The translations under genes were made by a program, and so were the position numbers. The notes below the pieces were generated by a model. The model was not told the DNA's origin and made no database searches. It was given only the letters and a program-made list of their open reading frames with translations. From assembly GCF_036323395.1 (NCBI RefSeq), contig NZ_AP028907.1, forward strand, positions 1,920,001 through 1,952,000: a stretch of 32,000 bases of DNA. Direction: 5' to 3'. Positions 1 through 31,400 of this stretch are shown here, one piece after another. Source of the stretch: Pyrodictium abyssi. Its GTDB lineage: Archaea; Thermoproteota; Thermoprotei_A; Sulfolobales; Pyrodictiaceae. The stretch's first letter is position 1. Each line of letters opens with the position of its first letter.

Positions 1-245
1 ATACTCTTAGGAATAATTCGTGAAGACACCAACTCTATACAGATGGTACTCCTCTTCCTATAGCGACTAAAGAATGCAACGGCTAAAACAAACAAACTTA
101 GAAGTACGTATGCATGTTCATGAAATCGTCTAAGAGGCTGCACTACTGCTAATATGGGGATCCCGAGCCCGTTCGCTAATAGTAGAGCGGCCACGGCTAA
201 GGGGAGAAGGGCGTGCCTTCTCAAGCCCAGCTGTTCCCGCAGCAT
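1..245 (-). CDS. partial hypothetical membrane protein (C-terminus outside window)
   Basis: Not in the supplied track. My own minus-strand translation from ATG at 243-245 stays open to the window edge (MLREQLGLRRHALLPLAVAALLLANGLGIPILAVVQPLRRFHEHAYVLLSLFVLAVAFF...). It has two hydrophobic stretches. Confidence 0.3.
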   Translation of the reverse strand, partial: MLREQLGLRRHALLPLAVAALLLANGLGIPILAVVQPLRRFHEHAYVLLSLFVLAVAFFSRYRKRSTICIELVSSRIIPKS

Positions 246-381
246 AGTCTCTGATTGACGTAGCAGATAGAGAGGGTTGAGCGAAAGCTCTGTACAAAGC
301 TTGAGACTAACGACAAGCCACAAACATTATACATGCAAAGAATACGGCAATGTGTTTGTAATGGCTGTAATTATCTTCTGC

Positions 382-747
382 CTAGGCTCTCGAGACTTTC
401 ACGTAGACCTTCTCGGTCGGTGTAAGCTCTAGCTTCTCGCTAGCTCTTATTATGAAGAGTAGGCCGCCTATAGAGATCAGTACGGCTTTCTTACCACCCT
501 CGTCTTTCATAGTAACCACGGTGCCACGTCCCACAAAGTCCTCCCCATCCTTATACTCGGGGAGACTCCTGGATACAGTTACCTCAACCTCTGTTCCGGG
601 CTCATAGACTACAAGGTCCTTATGGAGGTCCATCTCTACCTCGTAGTTACCGTCTAGGCTCTTTATCCGTGCCAGAAACATCTTAGGTATAAGCTCTGGC
701 TCAACGGACTCGACTCTTCCTTTGAACTCCACTATGGTGTCTGCCAA
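382..747 (-). CDS. rpo8: DNA-directed RNA polymerase subunit Rpo8 (RpoG)
   Basis: 121-aa beta-rich ORF with a TTG start. DFVGRGTVVTMKDEGGKKAVLISIGGLLFIIRASEK...KVYVKVSR matches my recollection of Sulfolobus Rpo8/RpoG (DFCGHGYIVTELKD...ISLFGLLVKIISNKE...HVYFCVKK). This subunit is specific to Crenarchaeota. Needs HMM confirmation. Confidence 0.6.
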   Translation of the reverse strand: MADTIVEFKGRVESVEPELIPKMFLARIKSLDGNYEVEMDLHKDLVVYEPGTEVEVTVSRSLPEYKDGEDFVGRGTVVTMKDEGGKKAVLISIGGLLFIIRASEKLELTPTEKVYVKVSRA

Positions 748-838
748 CCTCGTATTACACCCTGGCTGTATCGCGTGTATTAACAGAGCTAAAATTCTAC
801 ACCCCTATGCTGCTAGCAATAGCGGCCCCGAATAGCCG

Positions 839-848
839 TATTTAAAAA
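839..848 (+). promoter_or_regulatory. TATA-box-like element upstream of the Sm-like gene
   Basis: GTATTTAAAAATC lies about 50 nt upstream of ATG 899 in the divergent intergenic region between rpo8 and the Sm gene. Confidence 0.35.
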
Positions 849-6889: not shown

Positions 6890-7135
6890 CTATGTTCTTG
6901 CCCTAAGCATAAGCTTCGATAAAACCAGAACTATTACCGCGAGCACTACGCCGCTTAGCGATAACATATCGCATGCTGCGCCAAGCAGGAGTAAGAACAT
7001 ACCATCCCTAATGGCTCTATAAGCTCGTTGTTTCGCCTCCTCAAGGTCTAGGTAGTCATCGAGGCTTTTTGCAAGCAGCTCTGTACCCTCTAGTAGGAAA
7101 ACCATGATGCCTATTGCTTCAAGCCCCTTACCCAC
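6890..7135 (-). CDS. hypothetical small membrane protein (possibly N-terminally decayed)
   Basis: 81-aa ORF with a GTG start. The same frame stays open 49 codons further upstream, to 7282, and encodes a hydrophobic stretch (YAILVGVIVAIIVYY). That extension contains no ATG, GTG or TTG. Confidence 0.3.
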   Translation of the reverse strand: MGKGLEAIGIMVFLLEGTELLAKSLDDYLDLEEAKQRAYRAIRDGMFLLLLGAACDMLSLSGVVLAVIVLVLSKLMLRART

Positions 7136-7301
7136 TGCATCAGGGAGGAAAAAGCTCCTGTAGTAGACGATTATCGCAACTATGACTCCTACTAGGATTG
7201 CATAAGAATACCTTGCTATGCGTGATAGAGGGTCAGCTAACAGTGAGAGTATCTCGCTTAAGCCTAGACCACCCCGTTCTATCTATGCACACTAGTCGAT
7301 C

Positions 7302-7625
7302 CTACACGTCTGCGAATCTTTCCTCTATTAGCCTCTCTTGTTCGTCTATACATCTTTTTACAGCATCTAGTACTCTGGTAAGGCATTGCTTAAGTTCGCT
7401 TGGTAGTTCCCCTTCTACCTCTAGCTTGTAGGTACAAGACTCTAGGTTGTCGTATTTTAGGGCACATGCATAGAACTCTGAAAGCTTTTGGAACCAATTA
7501 CTGCTCAGCACGTCTTTGAAGACCTTATAGCACTCTGGACAGCATTGTAGCAGACTAGTTTTAGATAGCGTCGACGAGATACATGAGCCTCGCGATGACC
7601 TTTTGAGCATATCTTGCAGATCCAT
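7302..7625 (-). CDS. hypothetical Cys-rich protein
   Basis: 107-aa ORF in the lower-G+C island with plausible composition and several Cys (CCPECYK, YACALK, ESCTYK, KQCL, KRCI). I recognise no family. Confidence 0.4.
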   Translation of the reverse strand: MDLQDMLKRSSRGSCISSTLSKTSLLQCCPECYKVFKDVLSSNWFQKLSEFYACALKYDNLESCTYKLEVEGELPSELKQCLTRVLDAVKRCIDEQERLIEERFADV

Positions 7626-7918
7626 GTTCTCACCTTCTCACGCAGGCGTATATAGAATAGCAGTGCATGCTTAAAGCAGCTTAGGGGACAGAGTTATGCT
7701 ATTACCTCGTGCTTGATGGCAGAGAAGTAGAGAGACGAAAGATTGTCTGTTAGTACTGTCCTCGAATGCACCAGTCCGTTCTGCTAATGCAAGCTTGTCT
7801 ACATAATAATCAGCAGATCCAAGATCGGACAAGTGGGCAGACTAGTCGCTGGGTGAAAGCTTATTGGGTCTGCGGACTAGTATTATAATGATGGAATAGC
7901 AAAGGGAGGAGACAACGC

Positions 7919-8263
7919 GTGATAGAGGAAGCGATTATAGGATTGGTCTCTGGCATGCTGCTAGGCCTGGGATTCGCTGAAGAGGCAAAACTATTGAGAG
8001 CTATGGGTACACTTCTAGAACCTATAGGACTCATTGTAATTGTTAACAGATATGTGAACTATATGAGCTACACTAGCATGGTCACTTTTAGTGGCATAGC
8101 TGCTACCGTTAACATGACCGTTAACATGATAGCGGATCTCATTCTGTATATATTCATCACGTTTCTAGGCTCTGCTATAACGGCAATACCAGTAAAGTTC
8201 CTTGAGAAGGGCGGGTACATGTTAGGGAGTAGTCTCCGAGGGCTCTATGACTATGACCTCTAA
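7919..8263 (+). CDS. hypothetical membrane protein
   Basis: 114 aa with a GTG start preceded by AGGGAGGAG and a TATA-like GTATTATAAT about 35 nt upstream. It has three hydrophobic segments. Confidence 0.45.
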   Translation: MIEEAIIGLVSGMLLGLGFAEEAKLLRAMGTLLEPIGLIVIVNRYVNYMSYTSMVTFSGIAATVNMTVNMIADLILYIFITFLGSAITAIPVKFLEKGGYMLGSSLRGLYDYDL

Positions 8264-8398
8264 GAAGGGCTGCCATAGACCTCTCCTTATCTGGCTCCTT
8301 TTTTGCCATGAGATCTACTTCTATAATGCTGCTCTCGCTTGATCTGATGCCCCCATGGACCCTTCAGAGTGTTGATACACGTTATGCCACCTCTGTAT

Positions 8399-8713
8399 CT
8401 ATTCTATGCATATTGGCCATGGTCTGTCGAGCTGGTCGAATTCTAGCCTGAGTCTTGCTGCCCTTTTTCTGTCGTAGACGTAGATGCGGCGTGGCTGCTC
8501 CGCGTCACATGTCACTGTAGTCTTTTTCATTAGGAGGCCTATCTGGCGTAGCCTCTTTACGACGTGGTACTTCATGCCCCGCTCCGGGTCGTTCCTCCTT
8601 ATTTCTATGTAGCCTTTCTCCGCTAGCTCGGCTAGCACTTTGTTGCACATCTCTAGGGCCTTCTCCCCCTGGAAGAATATGGTGCAGAGCACCCAGTCCC
8701 GTGGGGCCTCCAC
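8399..8713 (-). CDS. putative winged-helix DNA-binding protein
   Basis: 104 aa. ALEMCNKVLAELAEKGYIEIRRNDPERGMKYHVVKRLRQ looks like a helix-turn-helix plus wing. No specific family recognised. Confidence 0.4.
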   Translation of the reverse strand: MEAPRDWVLCTIFFQGEKALEMCNKVLAELAEKGYIEIRRNDPERGMKYHVVKRLRQIGLLMKKTTVTCDAEQPRRIYVYDRKRAARLRLEFDQLDRPWPICIE

Positions 8714-21427: not shown

Positions 21428-23752
21428 ATGGGGAGAGCTAGGGCCTCGAGGAGGCTCTGGAGGCTGGGTGCCGCTGGGCTGCTGCTGGCTGGCCTAGCGC
21501 TGCCGCTACTCGCCATAGCCGCTGGCGCCGTGGAGTACCACGACTCCGTGCTGGGGTATAGCGGGGAGGGGGAGCCTGTTGAGCCGCTCCAGAGGCTAGG
21601 CTACGCCTTCGCCACGATACTGGTCTTCATCGGCGGCATTGCCTACGCGCTGGGCCGCTCGGATATCGCGAAGAGCAGCTGGGCGTGGGCAGTAACGGTG
21701 GCAGTCATAGTGGCATGGGTTTCGAGCTATAGTAGCGGGCTGCCCGGCGCCGCCGGAGAGGCCATGGTGTTCTGTCCCCCGGGGCAGTTCTACAAGGACG
21801 TGCCCGCTACGGTTGTGGTGGCGAGGCCAGGCGCCGAGGTCAGTGCCACCATTGACTGGGGCGACGGGAGCACTAGCAGCTGTTCTGGCCAAGGCTACTG
21901 CGTGGCCAGCCACGCGTACAGCGGGGAAGGGCTCTACACGATACGGGTCTCCGGTACCGCTAGCGCCCAGTGCGGTGTCGAGGTAAGGAGCCTGGGGAGC
22001 CTGCTGGAGGAGGGGTTCTCGGGGCTAGAGGCGGACTGCGGCTGGAGCCCGACCTCGTGGCCGGGCTGCATCATGGTGAACGCCGCGAAGGCTGTTGGGA
22101 AGGCCTTCGCGCTGCTGAGCGACGCTGTGGTATGGTTCTTCGCCCACAGCGGCGCCGGCGGCGTCTTCGAGAAGGTCGGGCTGATGCTCGTCACCGTGCC
22201 TGAGTCGGCGCCGCCACTCCTCGACACCCATGTCTACGCGTTGTTCCTCCTAGGCTACGCTGTGGCGGGCCTCGCTCTCTGGAGAGCGTTCTGGGAGTTC
22301 GAGAAGGGGCTGTCATGGCTGGATGCTCTCCGGGACGTAGCGTTCGTGCTGCTGGCGCTCAGCCTCGCGCAGCCGGTGTACACGTGGGCCGCCAGGCTAG
22401 TCAATAGCATGAGCATAGCCATGGCGCAGCCGGGCGTGCTGATGGCGTGGATGGCTATGCTGCTGGCCGTCACGGCTCTCGCGGCTGCGCTCCCCGTGGG
22501 CGGGGCCGGGGGCCTAGCGGCTGCCGGGGCGCTGGGCTTCGCTGGCTTCATCCTAGTAGCGCTGCTGAAGTACCTGCTGCTGGAGGCCATGTACCTGCTG
22601 CTGCCCCTCGTGGCGGTGCTCTGGCTCTTCCCCGGCACAAGGAGCGTCGCCCGGAGCATGACAAACATAGTCGTGGCGCTCATGGCGTGGAACCTAGTCC
22701 TAGCCGCGATGGTAGGGCTCTCCGCCAGGGCCCTGGCAGAGCCGGCCAGCGCCTCGCCCCTAGAGGTCATAGGCTACGGGGTAGCTCTCCCCCTGGCAAT
22801 GCTCGCCACAGGGCCCATGATAGGAGGCCTATTCGGCGCCCCACTCCCCGGGGCCGGCTTCTTCGCCGGCATGTGGGGCCGCGCCGCCGGCTTCGTGGCG
22901 ACCAGGCTAGGAGTGGCGCCACCCCAGCCACGAGCAGCACTAATGGTGGCACCAGGAGCCGTGGTAGGCCACACCGAGTACCTCCGCCCACCGACGCCAG
23001 CGATGCCGGCGCCGGGCACAACAGTAGCAGCCGGCGGAGCCCCCATAGCCTACGGCACCGCGGGGCCACCATCGCCAGCTCCGGCAAGAACCGACTGGCT
23101 CCGGCCGGCAGCAGGCCCAGGCCAGGCATGGGCCGGGCCCGAGGCAGTGTCAGGCATGGTGAGGAGGGTAGAGGAGCTCGGTAAGGGGCATGTAGGGTAT
23201 GAGGTCTCAGGCAGGGTGCCCGGGAGCCTCGAGCGCCGCTTCGCCGAGGAGGCGGCCCGGGATGCCGGCGCAGCGCTCGAGAAGCCGGGGCCGCGCGTTG
23301 AGGAGGTGCCACCAGCGACTAGGAGGATAAAGCAAGCAGCCAAGGAGGCGGCTCTTGGGCCTGTAAAGGCCGCAGCCAGGCCCCTGGCAAGAGAGTACAG
23401 GGCGATTAAGCAAGCAGTATCAGAGGTCGAGGGAGGCCGGGCAGCCAAGGCCGCCGCGCTAGGCGGCGCCGTCGCCGCCCGCCTCCACGCCTACATGTCC
23501 AATAGAGCAAGGCAGTTCATACGCGAGTTCTCAAGAGCGTTTGAGGCCCAGACCGGCATCATGGTGCCGACAAAACTCAAGCAGCTACAGTCCATCGAGT
23601 GGCAGCGCATCGAGGAGAGGATACGCACCGGAGCAGAAGCAGGCGCCATAGTCGGGCAAACTATGTACATGCGGATAAAGAAGCCCTTTGAGCGTTCGGA
23701 GCAGATAGTTAAGGCCTCTAGTGGGCGCAGCAGTGTCTACATGTACGGCTAA
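21428..23752 (+). CDS. polytopic membrane protein with PKD-like ectodomain (VirB6/TrbL/CedA-like candidate)
   Basis: 774 aa. It has a signal/TM segment and a PKD-type motif (IDWGDGSTSS...ASHAYSGEGLYTIRVSG). At least 8 hydrophobic helices follow, then a Pro/Ala-rich segment and a charged C-terminal tail. The VirB6-like call rests on topology and context only. Confidence 0.55.
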   Translation: MGRARASRRLWRLGAAGLLLAGLALPLLAIAAGAVEYHDSVLGYSGEGEPVEPLQRLGYAFATILVFIGGIAYALGRSDIAKSSWAWAVTVAVIVAWVSSYSSGLPGAAGEAMVFCPPGQFYKDVPATVVVARPGAEVSATIDWGDGSTSSCSGQGYCVASHAYSGEGLYTIRVSGTASAQCGVEVRSLGSLLEEGFSGLEADCGWSPTSWPGCIMVNAAKAVGKAFALLSDAVVWFFAHSGAGGVFEKVGLMLVTVPESAPPLLDTHVYALFLLGYAVAGLALWRAFWEFEKGLSWLDALRDVAFVLLALSLAQPVYTWAARLVNSMSIAMAQPGVLMAWMAMLLAVTALAAALPVGGAGGLAAAGALGFAGFILVALLKYLLLEAMYLLLPLVAVLWLFPGTRSVARSMTNIVVALMAWNLVLAAMVGLSARALAEPASASPLEVIGYGVALPLAMLATGPMIGGLFGAPLPGAGFFAGMWGRAAGFVATRLGVAPPQPRAALMVAPGAVVGHTEYLRPPTPAMPAPGTTVAAGGAPIAYGTAGPPSPAPARTDWLRPAAGPGQAWAGPEAVSGMVRRVEELGKGHVGYEVSGRVPGSLERRFAEEAARDAGAALEKPGPRVEEVPPATRRIKQAAKEAALGPVKAAARPLAREYRAIKQAVSEVEGGRAAKAAALGGAVAARLHAYMSNRARQFIREFSRAFEAQTGIMVPTKLKQLQSIEWQRIEERIRTGAEAGAIVGQTMYMRIKKPFERSEQIVKASSGRSSVYMYG

Positions 23753-24462
23753 ATCATGAGGCCTAGGGCGCGTAGTATTGCGAGGCCTATGAAGGCCCGC
23801 TGAGGTAGCTCGTCTAGCGCTTTTTTCGCCTCCTCCTTGCTTATCTCGCCCTTCTGCACAGCCTCAGCCAGGCCACGTCTCCATAGGTCGTCGGCGTAGC
23901 AGGCCGCGGCTGTTCTCGCTATGTCGTATGCTGTCCTGGTGCCATTGGCTAGCTCTAGGAGCATACATTCTAGGGCGCGAGCAAGGAAGCGGCGGCCATC
24001 GCGGGCCTCGATAAGGCAGCGGTATGGGGCAATGTTGTATTCATCGTAACCTGTCAGGGTAATGGGCTCGTCGAGCCAGCGAAAAGAGGCTAGGGGCCGC
24101 GGCTTCCATGTGTCAGCGTTAGTCTGTATCCAGTCAATGTCTAGTGGTGGGTGGCTGTGCATGTAGTCGTCGAGACCGCTGGGCAGTAACAGGTAGTCAT
24201 TGTGGCGCTTGAAGGGGAAGTTCTTCATTGTGTCGCGGGCCACAATGTAGAGGTCATCGCCTATCTTGCGCCAAAATAACTTGATTTCACCCTTGGCGAT
24301 ACGTTCCTCGGCGGCCCTCCATGCCGGGCTCTTCTGCATTAGCTTGAGGCGCTCTCTTGCTTCGGGTGTCAAGTTCTTCTCCATTTCCTTGGCTTGTCGT
24401 TCTAGCTCCTTTGCAAGCTCTTCAGCAAAGCGTTCCTCCTCACTTTTCTTCTTGAAGAGCAT
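23749..24462 (-). CDS. hypothetical protein (second gene of the RHH operon)
   Basis: ATG 24462 is preceded by GAGGTGA, which overlaps the upstream stop. N-terminal charged helix (EEERFAEELAKELERQAKEMEK). No family recognised. The track ORF extends to 24507. Confidence 0.55.
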   Translation of the reverse strand: MLFKKKSEEERFAEELAKELERQAKEMEKNLTPEARERLKLMQKSPAWRAAEERIAKGEIKLFWRKIGDDLYIVARDTMKNFPFKRHNDYLLLPSGLDDYMHSHPPLDIDWIQTNADTWKPRPLASFRWLDEPITLTGYDEYNIAPYRCLIEARDGRRFLARALECMLLELANGTRTAYDIARTAAACYADDLWRRGLAEAVQKGEISKEEAKKALDELPQRAFIGLAILRALGLMI

Positions 24463-24469
24463 GAGTGAC

Positions 24470-25090
24470 TCACCTCTTGAATAGTGATAGTTGTCTCGCC
24501 TCTTCAATTTTATCTAGTGGTACCAGTATCATGGTCTCTGCTTTGCTTCGGCATGAGTCTTTGTCCTTCATGCACGCTTTCAGGTCCGTTGTGTCTATGC
24601 CCATCTTGTCTAGTATCTCTACGGCTTCCTGCTTCTCCTTGAGTAGCTCGTGCATTTTTTGGGAGGCGTAGTCTATGCAATAGTCGAGGTCTTTGGCGAG
24701 GGTCTCGTACTCGCAGCGCCGTGGATCTAGGCAGTACGACTTATACACGGGTAGTGGGCTTACTGCAAGGATTAGTCTTACCTTGGGCCTCCCGCTGTTC
24801 ATGCCTACTCGGTAGGTGTAGAAGACCAGCGGGTCCGCTGCATGGCCCATGCAAGTGGTTTCGTACAGGTAGTAACCTGGTCTCCGATCTTTGAAGAGGA
24901 GCCTTGAGACCATAGCTTCAACACTTGCCGCCTCACCGAGCACATAGCCTTCCACATACTTGTTAACTAGGTGTTCTACGGCCTCGGCTGCCGAGTTGAG
25001 GCCTTCACGCTGGGCTATCTCTAGGAGCCTATCGAAGATCGGGGCCCTGACGCTCACGCTCCGATAACCACGCCTCTTGGTCTCGGACAC
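24470..25090 (-). CDS. ribbon-helix-helix (CopG-like) domain protein with Cys-rich C-terminal domain
   Basis: The N-terminus RRGYRSVSVRAPIFDRLLEIAQREGLNSAAEAVEHLVNKY follows the beta-alpha-alpha RHH pattern. The C-terminal part of about 150 aa is unassigned. Confidence 0.55.
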   Translation of the reverse strand: MSETKRRGYRSVSVRAPIFDRLLEIAQREGLNSAAEAVEHLVNKYVEGYVLGEAASVEAMVSRLLFKDRRPGYYLYETTCMGHAADPLVFYTYRVGMNSGRPKVRLILAVSPLPVYKSYCLDPRRCEYETLAKDLDYCIDYASQKMHELLKEKQEAVEILDKMGIDTTDLKACMKDKDSCRSKAETMILVPLDKIEEARQLSLFKR

Positions 25091-25363
25091 AGAGTCTCAC
25101 CCGTGTCGTCCTCTATACCTGCTTAGACCCGTATAAACTTACCTGCTAACACGTTAATGACGTAAAACCATAGCAAGATATATGTATAGTGATACCTAAT
25201 AGCTTATTTAAGTCTAGAGGGCTAGCCGAGGTCAGCAATAGCACCCTTGGCTTGTCAGGGGGTGGACAGAGGTAGACGGGGGTCGAGAGGGGTATAGTGG
25301 CTCCTAGACCCCAGAAGGGGTATATAGGGGTATTACTGCTCCTGGAGCCTCGGGTTAGTATAG

Positions 25364-26383
25364 ATGTGGCATAGTATAGGTGAGTTCGTCGAGCACGTCC
25401 TCGAAAGAGGTGCAAGGAAAGTCACTTGCTGGAAGAAGGGATCCGAGGGGTGCCGTGTCGCAAAGGTTAGCGTCGAGCCAAGTCTAGTAGGTGAACGGGT
25501 CTACGTATGGACTGAGAGCGAGGTAGAGGAGCTCCAGCGGAGGATTAAGAGCCTAGACTCTATGCGCCGGTTCTTCATATCGCTGATGAATACCGAGAAG
25601 GGGCGGAAAATGTTCACCATAGTCAGCGAGACGTGGAACCCCGTCACGGGGTGTGACCACAACTGTATCTACTGCTGGGCACGGCAGCTAGCGCTCACGA
25701 AGCTACGACGCGCCCCCCGCTACAGAGAGGGCTTCAGGCCCCGGCTCAACCCCGAGGAGTTCAGGAAGCGGTTCAAAGGCGGCGTAGTCTTCGTAAGCGA
25801 TATGGGCGATCTATGGGGCGAGTGGGTCCCTGATGACTGGATCCGTCGTGTACTAAACCATATAAAGAGATTCCCTAATACATGGTTCCTCTTCCTGACC
25901 AAGAACCCGCAGCGCTACCACGACTTCCTGGACGAGATCCCGCCTAACGCGATACTAGGCGCCACTATCGAGACTAACCGGGACAGCTACTTCCAGGAAG
26001 GCCACAAGCCAAGGATGTCCTCGGCTCCACTGCCTAGCCGCCGCTACAGGGCTATGAAAGAGCTAGACTGGCCTCTCAAGTTCATCTCTATAGAGCCGAT
26101 CCTAGACTTTGACCTGGACGTGTTCACCAGGTGGATCGAGGAGATAAACCCGTTCATGGTCTACATAGGCTACGACAACTACAGCCACAGGCTCCCAGAA
26201 CCCCCGCTAGCTAAGACACGAGAACTTATAAAGCGGCTAGAAGACTTCACACTCGTTATACGGAAAACGATTCGCCCAGCATGGAACGAGACACTCAACA
26301 AGTACACAAGCGGGGTGAAAGAAACTGGGCAAGCAAGGGAGTCAAAGAAAACAGCAGAGGCAGAACAAGCAGCAGCCGTATGA
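25364..26383 (+). CDS. DUF5131 / phage Gp37-Gp68 family protein (three-Cys, radical-SAM-like motif)
   Basis: ETWNPVTGCDHNCIYCWA (CxxxCxxC at 25652-25675), VFVSDMGDLWGEWVPDDWIRRVL and WFLFLTKNPQRY match the PF07505 consensus as I recall it. The conserved domain begins near ATG 25610, so the 82-codon N-terminal extension is uncertain. Confidence 0.7.
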   Translation: MWHSIGEFVEHVLERGARKVTCWKKGSEGCRVAKVSVEPSLVGERVYVWTESEVEELQRRIKSLDSMRRFFISLMNTEKGRKMFTIVSETWNPVTGCDHNCIYCWARQLALTKLRRAPRYREGFRPRLNPEEFRKRFKGGVVFVSDMGDLWGEWVPDDWIRRVLNHIKRFPNTWFLFLTKNPQRYHDFLDEIPPNAILGATIETNRDSYFQEGHKPRMSSAPLPSRRYRAMKELDWPLKFISIEPILDFDLDVFTRWIEEINPFMVYIGYDNYSHRLPEPPLAKTRELIKRLEDFTLVIRKTIRPAWNETLNKYTSGVKETGQARESKKTAEAEQAAAV

Positions 26384-26408
26384 GAGGTTTACACACTACC
26401 TAGGTGTA

Positions 26409-27398
26409 ATGCACAAAAAGGCGCTAGAACTTATGGACAGCCTTCCTGAGAACCAGAAGAACCAGGTCCAAGTCTTCTTTGACAAATACTATCCTACAAA
26501 GGAGCAACACTATTGGAGCGTCACAAAGCTCTTTGCTCACGCCATGTATATACCTATGTTTCTGCAAATAGGGCTCCATAATGTTGCTAAGGGCAAGTTC
26601 TCAAAGCTAGTATACATAGATACGCATTCCGGTCCAGGGCTAGCTAAGATAGGGGGCGATGAACGAGACATAGTCCTAGGGTCAGCTCTCCTAGCTCTAC
26701 ACTGGCCCCGTGTAGTCGCGAGCCAGGTGCCTCAGTTCAAGAACATAGCTAGGGGATTTGACGAACTCCACTTTATTGAGCTAAGCTGGCGCAATACGAA
26801 CATACTGCGTAAGTTCGTTAACAGCTTTACACATGTAAAGGTATATACTGACGACGCTAATCGGAGTCTACCTCGCATACCCGTGGATGAAAGAGCATTG
26901 GTGTATCTCTTTGTCGACCCGTATGGCGAGCTTGATTCGCAACTTAGTTACGACGCGCTAAGCAGCTTCGTTGCCCGCCATAGGGCCGACATAATGATGA
27001 GCGTGTTTGCCTCTCATCTTGCCCGCGGATTCTCCAGCATATCAAGGATAGACCTGCTAAAGGAAAGAGTTGAGCGTATCTTTGGGCCAGGGTTCTGTAC
27101 AAGTACGTGCCCTGGGGCACAGCTTCTTTGCAGTATTGGCGCAGCTACACGCGATGCCGTGCTTGAAGCCTTCAAATGCTTGCTAAGGAAGCTGGGTTAT
27201 CAGAAGGTAGTTGACATTCCGGTCCGCTTTGAGAAGGGCATTCTCTACTACATGGTATTAGCTACAAAAGGGTCTGGAGGCTGGATAGACGGCTACATAG
27301 ATTACATTAGTAACAAAGCGCCAAAAGACTATGAGACGCTGAAAAAGCTCTGGCTACGTGCAACCGGTAGACTTGTTGGCCTCGATAACTTCTTCTAG
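26409..27398 (+). CDS. TcmP-like (three-Cys-motif partner) protein, methyltransferase-like fold candidate
   Basis: 329 aa, immediately downstream of DUF5131, which is the arrangement that defines TcmP. YIDTHSGPG and FVDPYGE resemble the RlmJ-type ETHAGAG / DPPY motifs, from memory. Confidence 0.5.
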   Translation: MHKKALELMDSLPENQKNQVQVFFDKYYPTKEQHYWSVTKLFAHAMYIPMFLQIGLHNVAKGKFSKLVYIDTHSGPGLAKIGGDERDIVLGSALLALHWPRVVASQVPQFKNIARGFDELHFIELSWRNTNILRKFVNSFTHVKVYTDDANRSLPRIPVDERALVYLFVDPYGELDSQLSYDALSSFVARHRADIMMSVFASHLARGFSSISRIDLLKERVERIFGPGFCTSTCPGAQLLCSIGAATRDAVLEAFKCLLRKLGYQKVVDIPVRFEKGILYYMVLATKGSGGWIDGYIDYISNKAPKDYETLKKLWLRATGRLVGLDNFF

Positions 27399-27743: not shown

Positions 27744-28136
27744 TCACTGCTCCCGGGCCTCCTTTCTCTCCTCGACCTTGTTGAGCATCTCCAGTATTGG
27801 CTCGCGTAGCCTCTTGTTCATCACCCATACCCGTTTCCGTGTCCATCCGTAGTAGTGTTGCTCGACGAGGGGCGGGAGGTCTCCCCGCTGCTTGGAGAGC
27901 CTCCGAAGCCAGCTCACGGCCGCCACGTAGTTGTCGTCGCCGACTATCTCCGCGACGCGGCGTGTAGAGACCTTGTTGCCCTCGGCTAGGTAGCGTAGGA
28001 GTCTCCTCTTCCACTCGGGTAGCTCCCGGAGCCACTCCTCCACCTCGACTCGGTCTAGGATGGATTCTCTCCGCCTGGGCACGGCCCAGCCGCCTCCAGG
28101 ACTAGTAGCCGGGCCGGGAGAAGGCCGGAAACGCAT
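27744..28136 (-). CDS. putative HTH/winged-helix DNA-binding protein
   Basis: 130 aa. KRRLLRYLAEGNKVSTRRVAEIVGDDNYVAAVSWLRRL is HTH-like. It lies directly downstream of the iteron-like array. Confidence 0.45.
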   Translation of the reverse strand: MRFRPSPGPATSPGGGWAVPRRRESILDRVEVEEWLRELPEWKRRLLRYLAEGNKVSTRRVAEIVGDDNYVAAVSWLRRLSKQRGDLPPLVEQHYYGWTRKRVWVMNKRLREPILEMLNKVEERKEAREQ

Positions 28137-28282
28137 GGAGACGCGGCAGAGCGCCCCATGCGTGTCAGGTCGCTTCTATGCGCAGTAGAGCGGCCTAGCG
28201 AACTCCTGGGGGCTGCAGGGCTGCTCCAGGAGGCCTCCGGGGGCCCCTCGGGCCAGAAGCGGCCCCTAGGGACCTAGGCAGG

Positions 28283-28434
28283 TGCTAGGGAGTGCTAGGC
28301 GGCGCCTGGAGACCTGAGAGAGCCTGGAGGAGCCTCGGGAGGCCTCGAGAGCTGCTAAGAGCTGCTAGGAGAAACACGGGGCCCGGGAAGCTGCTAGGCG
28401 GCCACAAGGGCTGCTAGCCGGTGCTAGGCGGCGC
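28283..28434. repeat. iteron-like array of TGCTAGG motifs
   Basis: TGCTAGG occurs at 28283, 28293, 28363, 28392 and 28422, with variants TGCTAAG at 28353 and TGCTAGC at 28412. The exact 14-mer GTGCTAGGCGGCGC occurs at 28292-28305 and 28421-28434. GCCT(G/C)GAG repeats lie at 28303-28350. Confidence 0.7.
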
Positions 28435-28452
28435 GGCGCGACCCTTCATTCT

Positions 28453-31400
28453 CTATACCCAGATTCGGCTTGCTCCGCGGGTTGCGTAGACGCGTCCGGT
28501 GCGGGTTTTCTTTAGCCTGTAGCCGCGGGCTCGTAGCTCGAGTGCTTTCCTGGCTTTGGGTTCTGGGAGGCATACTTCCTCGTGTTCTGGGGTGTCTAGT
28601 TTGACCCAGTAGCAGTTCTGGTCTGGGTCGTATTCGGGTTGCTGTGGGGTTTGCTGGGTCTGGGTGTCTGGTGTCTCGGGTTTCTCTCCCCGTGTCTCTG
28701 CTGGCGCCTCCTCCCGGAGTTCCGGTGCCTCCCCGTGCTCGTGTGCCTGCTCGGTCTCTGGCTCGGGCTCTGTGATCTCTCCGTGCTGCTGGTTGGCCTG
28801 GGCTAGTTGTTCTAGGAGCGTTATCATCTTCTCTAGGAGCTTTGTCTGGTGCTCTTGGAGCTCTAGTAGCCTGTCGAGCTTCTCTTGCTGGGTCTTCTGG
28901 GCTTGTAGGAGGCTCGCTGTGGCCTGGCCCAGGGCTAGTAGGTGCTTGGCCTGGGCCTCTAGGATCTGGTAGAGGTCTCCACCGGGGGCCCCTCGGGGCT
29001 CCCTGGACCCGGGCCGCTGCCCCACGCCCTCGACGCCGGCACCGGCCTCCTCGACGGCCTCCACGCCATCGCCGGTCTCCTCCCCAGCCTCCCCGGACGC
29101 CTCCACCTCAACACCGGCCTCAACGCTGGCATCCGGCTCCTCGACGCCAGCCTCTTCGGTGCCCGGCACCTCTCTGTCGGCCTCGACTGCCTCCTCTACC
29201 TCAGCACCAGCCTCCTCGACGGCCTCCTCCGGCGGCATCACCCTGACCGGCAGCGGCAGCCTACCCTCCACCTTCCCGAGGACCTCGAGCAGCCTAGCCC
29301 GGCACCCCGCCGGCGCCCAGACGTGGACCTCCGCGAAGACGCCCCGCCGGTGCTTCAACAGGTTCCGGGCAGCCTGCTCCGGGTGCGTAGCGAGCTCGTT
29401 GCAGCTCTCAATCTCGACCGCGACACTCTTGTCATAGCGTAGACTCATCGAGGCAGGATCAAACGGGATCGCCACCATGTCTGGCCTGGCGCTGAGGCCC
29501 GGGTCCTGCCTGGCGGGGTAGACAACATAGCCCCTCGAGAAGTAGTGGAGCACCGCCTCCCGGGCCAGCCTGTAGCCCTCCTCGCCCGGCGCAACCTGGT
29601 GGAGTCCCTCGAAGAGCCCCTTGACGTAGCGCACGAGCCACCGGTTGCCCTCCCTACGGGCCTCGATCAGCCCCCGGGCAGCCAAGGCATTACGGGCCTC
29701 ATCCGCCCTATTGCGCGGCAGCCCGAGCCTCACCAAGACGTTGCTCCACAGCTCCTCCCCCGCGCCGCCCCCAGTCGCCTCGTAGACGTGGTAGAGAGTC
29801 CACAGCTCAACACCACTCGGCCGATCCCTAGGGAGATACCTCAGCACAGGGTTAAGCTTCGAGACGATATCCCCCGCCCCGGGCTCCGGGGGCGGCGCGA
29901 AGCGCGGCAGCAGCTCCACCAGCGGCCGGATGTTCCCGAGGCGGCGCCTAGGCGGCGGGTCCATCTTCACAACCGTGGGCGGCGCCGGCGGCTCCCCGAA
30001 GTCCGGCGCAACCGAGACCACCGCCGAGCCGCCCGGAAGCCCGCTGAGAGCCCGCTTGACCTCCTCCGCGAACTCCTTGTCCACGGCAGCGAGCACGTCC
30101 ACGTCGCGGGCGTCGGCTACGGGGAAGAACACCTTCACCAAGGTGTTCGTGAACATGCTCCGCAGAAGCACATCCGGGACCTGCCGCGGGTGCTGGTGAG
30201 CCATCACGAGGACCACGCCATACTTCCTGGCCTCGCTGAGAACCGTGTCCACCACCTCGGGGATAGCCTGCGCCACGTTCTGGAACTCGTCCATAATGAT
30301 GTACACCGGGGTCCGCTTCTTGCCGAGGAGAGCCCGCTCCAGCGCCCAGAACCAGATGCGGAGCACCACCATGGGTATGAGCAGCCTGAGAAACTGCTCC
30401 CCCAGCACCTTCGGCAGCCTCAGTATCAGCAACCCGCCGGGCTGCAGCACGGTGTCGAGGTCCAGAGTTGACTCGGAGGTCATCGCACGGAGCAGCTTAT
30501 TGTTACGGAAAGGCTCCAGCCTCGAGAAGACACCGAAGAAGCTGTCCTCGCTCATGTCCCTTAGGAGTTCGAGCTGGTGGCGCCACTCCGGGTCGTCGAT
30601 CGGCAGGTCTAGCTCCTCGCGGTACAGCGCCACAAAGGTGTCGTAGAGGTCGGCGAGCGTCACCCTGCCGCCGAGCCGGTGGTACATGTAGCGGAGCACG
30701 ACCTGGAGAAGGTACTTGATGCGGACACTCGTCCCGCTTAGCTCCAGCACCTTCTCGAACAGGTCCACCAGGTGGTCCGTGGCTATGTCATAGGCTTGCT
30801 CCCTGTCGCGGAGGCGAGGCGGCTCCAGAGGGTTGAGGCTGGCGAGGAAGGGCCTCTCCCCGTCGTCGGTCTCGTAAACGGGGTCCACTAGCCAGACGCG
30901 CTCGAGGCTAGGCAGCGACTCCAGGATGTCGTAGGAGACGTCGCCGTGGGGGTCGATGAAGACTATAGCAGCGTCGCTCTCCTCCCGGAGCCTCAGAACG
31001 AGGTTCCAGAGGAACGTCGACTTCCCGCTCCGGGTGCGGCCCACCACCCAGGTATGGAGCATCTGGCGCAGGGGAACGCAGTACTCCTTCCCGTCCAGGG
31101 TCTCCCCGAACCGGATACACTTCTCCCGCGGCTTCACCCGCGGCGTTATGCTCGGCAGCTCCCCGCCCCGGGCAAACTCCACGAAAGCTGAGACCTCGTC
31201 CGGTCTCGGCAACCTCACAAGATGCATGAAGCTCTCCTGTGGTATCCACGGGTACTCCTTCTTCGGGGAGAACCGGCCCATGAGGCTCATGGGGTCCCTT
31301 AGCTTGGAGGGGCTCCCCCTCCGGGAGACCTTCACCTTGAGTGCGGGGGTGAAGAGGCCCGCAGCCCTCTCCCCCAGCTCCCTAGCACGCTCCTTATCAT

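Follow-up and report, generated by a model that had tools for sequence, protein, structure and literature searches.

The window analysed here is a stretch of 32,000 nucleotides (nt) of the Pyrodictium abyssi genome (GCF_036323395.1, NZ_AP028907.1, 1,920,001-1,952,000); positions given without a locus number refer to this window. Within an integrated conjugative element it carries two adjacent genes on the plus strand, encoding a DUF5131 protein (25364-26383) and TcmP, a three-Cys-motif partner protein (26409-27398). They are an archaeal, element-borne member of a known, uncharacterised gene pair. DUF5131 and TcmP constitute a self-contained two-enzyme unit that is often a single protein. Our preferred interpretation, to which we assign a probability of about 0.4, is that this unit jointly modifies nucleic acid, with DNA as the favoured substrate, in conflicts between hosts and mobile elements.

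Linkage and fusion of DUF5131 and TcmP

Species-representative genomes of GTDB were scanned with a DUF5131 profile and hidden Markov model searches were run on the loci found. The two genes are separated by 25 nt in the window. Throughout the clade of its DUF5131 protein TcmP lies directly downstream, either overlapping or within 120 nt (17 of 17 GTDB loci and five metagenome loci). As a reverse test, metagenomes were scanned with a TcmP profile. This yielded 27 loci with TcmP, and in 22 of these DUF5131 adjoins it. Among the remaining five loci, three start at the end of a contig and a fourth has no more than 453 nt of sequence upstream; the fifth stops at a contig edge, with no DUF5131 in the 1.3 kb upstream of TcmP.

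Among the 22 linked loci there are six single-frame fusions, including a partial one, and three loci with the genes in convergent orientation. Overall, single-frame DUF5131-TcmP fusions are found in at least eight loci: L008 (7135-9066), L013 (4538-6502), L183 (2954-5038), L185 (863-2827), L186 (1333-3186), L187 (1230-3077) and L190 (3017-5041), which measure about 620-690 codons, and the partial L184. The protein P0151 is likewise such a fusion. The recurrence of the pairing noted in the sequence-only reading, an earlier interpretation of this DNA from its letters and open reading frames, is thus borne out as co-conservation. As the linkage is obligatory and fusion has occurred repeatedly, the two activities are expected to work together.

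In bacteria TcmP adjoins DUF5131 in 13 of the 37 loci sampled and is located immediately upstream of it in 12 of these 13, an order opposite to that of the archaeal clade, where DUF5131 precedes TcmP. A conserved third gene was looked for around the bacterial pairs and none was found.

The DUF5131 protein

The first gene of the pair encodes a 339-amino-acid member of the DUF5131 (Gp37/Gp68) family that is 100% identical to an annotated P. abyssi 'DUF5131 family protein'. Residues 88-248 match PF07505 with 71.5 bits (cutoff 28.9). The protein also matches PHROG 2045 (5.7e-28), to which that database assigns no function, and the PADLOC model PDC-M41B (3.2e-19). It consists of an N-terminal extension (residues 1-85) followed by a core (residues ~85-310) of the radical S-adenosylmethionine (SAM) type. 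The motif CDHNCIYC (25652-25675, plus strand), singled out earlier for its radical-SAM spacing (CxxxCxxC), contains Cys97, Cys101 and Cys104, the presumed ligands of a [4Fe-4S] cluster. All three are invariant in an alignment of 95 homologs, and no further cysteine is.

An AlphaFold2 model based on this alignment (mean predicted local distance difference test score, pLDDT, of 90.8) indicates a radical-SAM-like partial TIM-barrel fold. When the model is compared with the PDB, spore photoproduct lyase is the best match (E ~4e-5, TM-score ~0.38), followed by SuiB, viperin, TYW1 and other radical-SAM enzymes, with MiaB also among the matches. All ten matches with E <= 1e-3 are radical-SAM enzymes. 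At RadicalSAM.org, DUF5131 is listed as a radical-SAM subgroup, next to the cluster of spore photoproduct lyase (PMC9477430). A sequence-profile search of the PDB retrieved no radical-SAM chain and was uninformative.

The N-terminal extension tracks the presence of TcmP: it is found in 20 of 21 DUF5131 proteins with TcmP versus one of 30 without. It is a likely interface with the partner protein.

TcmP

The 329-amino-acid product of the second gene, also named TcmP by NCBI, matches TIGR04474 over residues 36-287 (63.7 bits, cutoff 53) and the PADLOC model PDC-M41A (5.3e-8). The family assignments made for both proteins of the pair therefore hold. DTHSGPG (residues 71-77; 26619-26639, plus strand) and VDPYGE (residues 169-174; 26913-26930, plus strand), which had been recognized as methyltransferase-like, fall on invariant columns of an alignment of 34 archaeal homologs, in which Asp71, Thr72, His73, Gly75, Gly77, Asn151, Asp170 and Pro171 are strictly conserved.

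In a Foldseek search of the PDB with the AlphaFold2 model (mean pLDDT 92.4, from the 34-sequence alignment), the top 14 matches are Escherichia coli RlmJ and its Legionella homolog (RlmJ/DUF519 family), with E-values of ~5e-8 to 1e-6 and TM-scores of 0.41-0.53. Nicotinamide N-methyltransferases come next. RlmJ is the methyltransferase that forms N6-methyladenine (m6A) at position 2030 of 23S rRNA, an enzyme of the base-flipping adenine-N6 type. Alignment of the TcmP profile with E. coli RlmJ using hhalign (E 8e-4) pairs YIDTHSGPG with YLDTHAGAG and FVDPYGE with LIDPPYE. As for DUF5131, a sequence-profile search of the PDB was uninformative and did not retrieve RlmJ, and as a consequence the fold comparison alone is informative for both enzymes. 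TcmP is thus predicted to be an RlmJ-like, SAM-dependent amino-methyltransferase in which motif IV takes the variant form DP[YF]G. It is no ortholog of RlmJ; its mobile and patchy distribution speaks against orthology.

The start of the gene is unusual. A conserved N-terminal segment (…QQPYERFTHYLGV preceding Met-His) is encoded in frame upstream of the ATG at 26409, within a 5' extension of the open reading frame (26319-26408, plus strand) whose translation includes PYERFTHYLGV. The extension runs back to a stop codon at 26316-26318, overlaps the 3' end of the DUF5131 gene in the +1 frame and contains no ATG, GTG or TTG. TcmP homologs begin 25-30 residues before the conserved Met-His; the relatives have a GTG or ATG start codon there, unless they are fused to DUF5131. 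Translation from a non-canonical codon, a fusion protein produced by +1 frameshifting and recent loss of the start codon are all possible.

Catalogue status and genomic neighbourhoods

The adjacent DUF5131 and TcmP genes match both components of the PADLOC candidate system PDC-M41, and the pair is thus already catalogued as a defence candidate, although as a candidate only. In full-text literature searches we found no functional study of DUF5131 or TcmP and no mention of PDC-M41; what was retrieved were annotation tables and the RadicalSAM.org listing. This is in line with the statement in the sequence-only reading that the pair has no established function. In one annotation table TcmP is seen next to the defence gene Hna in Sinorhizobium (PMC12445080).

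The region within 5 kb of the pair was inspected in ten bacterial and 12 archaeal loci. The bacterial neighbours include integrases, restriction-modification genes of types I, II and IIG, DRT3b, AbiH, Mrr, RmuC and several PDC candidates. Around the archaeal pairs, housekeeping genes are mixed with components of type I and type II restriction-modification systems.

Proposed mechanism

We infer joint modification of nucleic acid from the linkage and fusion of the two genes taken together with their nearest folds, those of RlmJ and spore photoproduct lyase, both of which act on nucleic acids. The role in DNA or RNA modification put forward earlier fits these fold matches. Given that the pair is distributed on mobile elements and in defence-rich regions, DNA is preferred to RNA as the substrate. 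In such a mechanism, DUF5131 would bind a [4Fe-4S] cluster through Cys97, Cys101 and Cys104 and cleave SAM to a 5'-deoxyadenosyl radical, which would abstract a hydrogen atom from the substrate. TcmP would flip out and methylate a base, most likely adenine at N6. The two enzymes would act on the same or neighbouring sites and install a covalent modification, which in turn could mark or protect self DNA or serve in defence during conflict between host and mobile element. We consider it possible, with a good deal of doubt, that the pair makes an undescribed modification in which N6-type methylation is coupled to radical chemistry, or that it is a restriction-like defence, the first to employ a radical-SAM enzyme as effector, in either case within a hyperthermophilic archaeon and on a conjugative element.

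A number of observations weigh against joint modification of DNA by the pair. Of the profiles that bear on its chemistry, PF07505 and TIGR04474 pass their cutoffs, whereas the general Radical_SAM model of Pfam, which covers residues 92-137 of the DUF5131 protein, stays below threshold (17.6 versus 29.5), as does the RlmJ model PF04378 on TcmP (14.3 versus 27 bits). The TM-scores of the fold matches are modest (0.38-0.53), motif IV of TcmP reads DPYG instead of DPPY, and the closest structural relative of TcmP targets rRNA and not DNA. The genomic neighbourhoods fit a conflict-related role but were tallied without a genomic background, and the literature searched holds no experiment on any member of either family.

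DUF5131 also occurs alone. Lower-scoring archaeal members, mostly from Bathyarchaeia, have neither the N-terminal extension nor TcmP and are found in conserved housekeeping synteny. This stand-alone clade (L020-L050, for example L033 8001-8678 and L050 4862-5515) comprises short proteins of about 230-260 amino acids, encoded near genes for KaiC-like, HAD, HypD/HypE-like and membrane proteins. A recurrent partner was sought for them and only this conserved synteny was seen. In general, then, the radical enzyme can do without TcmP and may act on a cellular substrate; a cellular role is suggested for the stand-alone form. In viruses, DUF5131 is present in at least 571 IMG/VR contigs and in 96 phage genomes, again mostly alone: a TcmP-like neighbour accompanies it in only seven of 80 IMG/VR loci, and a tblastn search of 50,697 phage genomes found no TcmP, hence none in the 96 records with DUF5131. 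PHROGs contains no TcmP family, and among the BFVD models only generic methyltransferases were found.

Alternative explanations

Were the substrate RNA, which appears unlikely to us, the pair would modify rRNA or tRNA, either in the host or in a new host of the element. TcmP would contribute m6A and DUF5131 a radical-dependent change, resulting in altered translation or in resistance to a toxin or antibiotic. RlmJ and its family, which fill the top of the TcmP fold list, are rRNA methyltransferases, TYW1 and MiaB among the DUF5131 matches modify tRNA, and the housekeeping neighbourhoods of stand-alone DUF5131 are suggestive of a cellular substrate. Spread on conjugative elements and in prophage-like and variable defence-rich regions would be unusual for a core RNA modification, and the pair is patchy and universal in no lineage. 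In addition to the subthreshold score of TcmP with the RlmJ profile, the motif spacing suggests that the RlmJ stretch between DTHxGxG and GSPL is missing. Less probable again is a defence that resembles restriction-modification, in which TcmP methylates self DNA and DUF5131 is the effector, using radical chemistry to damage or cleave incoming DNA that lacks the methylation. The status of the pair as PDC-M41 and its defence-rich neighbours are what such a system would show. The combination of a methyltransferase with a second enzyme, in fusions resembling type IIG enzymes, fits the logic, and the nearest fold of DUF5131, spore photoproduct lyase, acts on DNA. A profile search detected no nuclease domain in any of the four proteins encoded by the pair and the operon divergent from it, no conserved third gene is present near the pair and the literature searched reports no phenotype. 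Moreover, the occurrence of DUF5131 alone in most phage loci examined and in the housekeeping contexts of Bathyarchaeia speaks against an inherent self-toxicity of the radical enzyme and is difficult to square with an effector that would have it.

DNA repair seems quite improbable. Here, DUF5131 would be a lyase similar in type to spore photoproduct lyase and would repair a lesion in DNA, such as one in transferred single-stranded DNA at ~100 °C, with TcmP in an accessory or targeting role. Spore photoproduct lyase as the best fold match, the label 'DNA repair photolyase' that some sources give to DUF5131 homologs, the hyperthermophilic host and the many phages that carry DUF5131 would all agree with it. 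That match has a TM-score of only ~0.38 and no counterpart at the sequence level, and repair leaves an obligatorily linked or fused methyltransferase with intact catalytic motifs unexplained. The explanation we rate lowest is small-molecule or nucleotide chemistry, where DUF5131 makes a nucleotide analogue, as viperin does, and TcmP methylates the product. Viperins are found among the fold matches of DUF5131, and radical-SAM defences that act on nucleotides are known (prokaryotic viperins and Ophion). Against this, viperin ranks below spore photoproduct lyase and TcmP has its closest relatives among base-flipping methyltransferases of polynucleotides, even though nicotinamide N-methyltransferases follow in its list.

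The conjugative element

The first 5000 nt of the window carry host genes, including those for archaeosine tRNA-guanine transglycosylase and a PAC2 chaperone. An SSV-type integrase gene follows from ~5.8 kb on, and further downstream there are VirB11/T2SSE-, T2SSF-, VirB4/HerA- and TraG/TrwB-like genes. The pair and the two-gene operon divergent from it therefore lie inside a conjugative element integrated in the P. abyssi chromosome, as had been assumed. The right end of the element is located beyond the window, within which no long direct repeats of the att type, no tRNA genes and no Rfam matches were found.

The four open reading frames that the sequence-only reading had delineated between 23749 and 27398 are all present. 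Their G+C content is lower than that of the element, as it had stated: the four genes have a value of 0.521, the same as the host flank, and the element backbone one of 0.632; the TcmP gene alone has 0.48. A second patch of low G+C content (0.45-0.47) is located at 7000-8500, just inside the element beside the integrase, and contains no open reading frame of more than 114 amino acids.

Two repeat regions were seen downstream of the pair. Repeated TGCTAGG…GTGCTAGGCGGCGC motifs occupy 28204-28443 in a spacer of 317 base pairs (bp) between a small gene for a winged-helix-turn-helix-like protein (27744-28136) and the TraG-like gene, and could represent a regulatory or transfer-related site. Within the TraG/TrwB-like gene, tandem-like 35-nt repeats at 29028-29227 encode an acidic region of EAVEEAG-type repeats near the C-terminus.

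The divergent operon and its control region

On the minus strand, the operon consists of a gene for a 206-amino-acid protein (24470-25090) followed by one for a 237-amino-acid protein of unassigned family (23749-24462). The 206-residue protein has a putative N-terminal DNA-binding domain of the ribbon-helix-helix (RHH) type (residues ~8-45) and a rare C-terminal domain with an invariant YCx5C motif. The window protein itself has no Pfam match, to the RHH domain proposed earlier or otherwise, and NikR appears only at E 1.1. Support for the assignment is indirect: the 45 N-terminal residues align with the positionally equivalent protein of locus L090 (87% probability, E 4e-6), which passes the RHH model MatP_C with 26.5 bits (cutoff 24). 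'Cys-rich', as the C-terminal domain had been described, is an overstatement, with two cysteines invariant in the family. This domain differs between elements, having been swapped. Only nine relatives of the 206-residue protein were found among 1.84 billion representative proteins.

The stop codon of its gene lies inside GAGGTGA, 7 nt ahead of the ATG at 24462 of the second gene, and the overlap from which translational coupling had been deduced is confirmed. The mechanically called open reading frame of the second gene is longer (23749-24507). The 237-residue protein has 17 homolog clusters, none of them named, and no Pfam match. The best match in the protein collection has 84% identity and none reaches 100%, so that the gene may be unannotated in P. 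abyssi or be annotated with another start. At its 3' end it overlaps the convergent gene of a 774-residue membrane protein by 4 nt (23749-23752), and the same tail-to-tail overlap is observed in L001, L088, L090 and L092.

The operon and the enzyme pair are separated by a divergent promoter region at 25091-25363. The AT-rich control region of about 270 bp that had been described measures 273 bp and its G+C content is below that of the surroundings, although at 48.7% it is just mildly AT-rich. It contains two TATA-like boxes, at 25132-25137 for the operon and at 25321-25326 for DUF5131, each ~40 nt upstream of the respective start. Three copies of an imperfect 33-nt direct repeat of the GGGGTATA type, GGGGT(A/C)…GGGGTAT…, span 25259-25349 and overlap the TATA box of DUF5131. 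These repeats could serve the RHH protein as operator sites. Neither they nor the rest of the control region are conserved at the nucleotide level in L001 or L088. The RHH protein probably regulates the backbone operon or the divergent promoter, and it may control the shared promoter even though the operon lies outside the enzyme unit.

Backbone and cargo

Homologs of the 237-residue protein are encoded in L001, L088/089, L090/091 and L092/093, each preceded by a small RHH-type gene and abutting a large convergent membrane protein gene. Where the contig reaches far enough (L088, L090 and L092), VirB4-like genes lie beyond the membrane protein gene, and TrbC-like genes are present in two. This arrangement is kept with and without the enzyme pair. 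As their location relative to the membrane protein and VirB4-like genes is the same in either case, the RHH-type and 237-residue genes form part of the backbone of this family of archaeal conjugative elements. In L088 (13455-13736) and L092 (4703-4981), genes for ParE-like toxins were noticed in the stretch that separates the membrane protein gene from the VirB4-like region.

In the window, L001 and L088/089 the enzyme pair stands divergently beside the RHH operon. The corresponding slot of L090 is occupied by a different gene of low G+C content (0.43; 1-840, minus strand), with neither DUF5131 nor TcmP and with only weak hints of winged-helix-turn-helix or Rrf2-like similarity. The slot thus looks like a hot spot for cargo. 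The pair also occurs in many contexts without the operon, such as L003, where it is near MCM and Hel308, and L001 and L088 likewise show a dip in G+C content at the pair (0.38-0.42 for TcmP). From its occurrence elsewhere without the operon, the other gene in the L090 slot and this recurrent dip it follows that the DUF5131-TcmP pair is cargo in a variable slot of the element. We also considered whether the RHH and 237-residue genes travel with the pair and rejected this, as the 237-residue gene tracks the conjugation backbone and the C-terminal domain of the RHH protein is swapped between elements. The proposal that the four genes were acquired together as one island is accordingly not upheld: the operon is conserved backbone, while the pair fills an adjacent variable slot and is also found elsewhere.

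Significance

DUF5131 is a large radical-SAM subgroup without an assigned reaction; its homologs found here number in the thousands, and over 570 viral contigs carry it. Its pairing with TcmP is catalogued as a candidate defence system with no mechanism given there. An RlmJ-like prediction for TcmP, a DNA lyase as the nearest fold of the radical enzyme, and the linkage and fusion of the two now provide handles, and suggest that they be assayed together on nucleic acid. The natural fusions are well suited to biochemical work. Should the chemistry be new, the pair would represent a new modification of DNA or RNA, or a new principle of defence, carried as cargo on archaeal conjugative elements. 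If the product is m6A plus an accessory activity, the pair would be routine cargo of a mobile element.

Comparison with known systems

The window pair resembles the PDC-M41 or TcmP-DUF5131 pairs in that both models are matched, the genes are adjacent, DUF5131 contains CxxxCxxC and the location is mobile DNA. It has DUF5131 first, unlike 12 of the 13 bacterial pairs sampled. It further differs from other TcmP-DUF5131 pairs in belonging to an archaeal clade with an additional N-terminal extension of DUF5131 and with relatives that are often fused, and in being cargo of a conjugative element of a hyperthermophile.

E. coli RlmJ (PF04378/DUF519) is the best structural match of TcmP, and the motifs DTHxGxG, GSPL(I)A and DP-aromatic follow one another in this order in both proteins. 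Motif IV is DP[YF]G in TcmP and DPPY in RlmJ, TcmP is ~40 residues shorter than RlmJ between DTHxGxG and GSPL, and it has helical parts of its own at both termini. In contrast to RlmJ, TcmP is always partnered with a radical-SAM-type enzyme and encoded on mobile DNA. DUF5131 in turn has spore photoproduct lyase (PDB entry 4fhc) as the best structural match of its core and shares the CxxxCxxC cluster motif with it, whereas sequence similarity between the two is not detectable, the TM-score is ~0.38 and the lyase has no methyltransferase partner.

RlmN/Cfr and MiaB carry out radical-SAM chemistry on adenine in RNA, for which they need extra conserved cysteines or a second cluster, and Cfr is found on mobile DNA. 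DUF5131 has three invariant cysteines only, which argues against a mechanism of the RlmN/Cfr or MiaB type, and those enzymes work without a separate Rossmann-fold methyltransferase. Type II and IIG restriction-modification systems are similar in being two-component or fused modules with an amino-methyltransferase-like enzyme in defence-rich regions. The DUF5131-TcmP pair differs from them in having no nuclease domain and a second enzyme of the radical-SAM type. It is also distinct from Ophion, a radical-SAM defence system of three genes.

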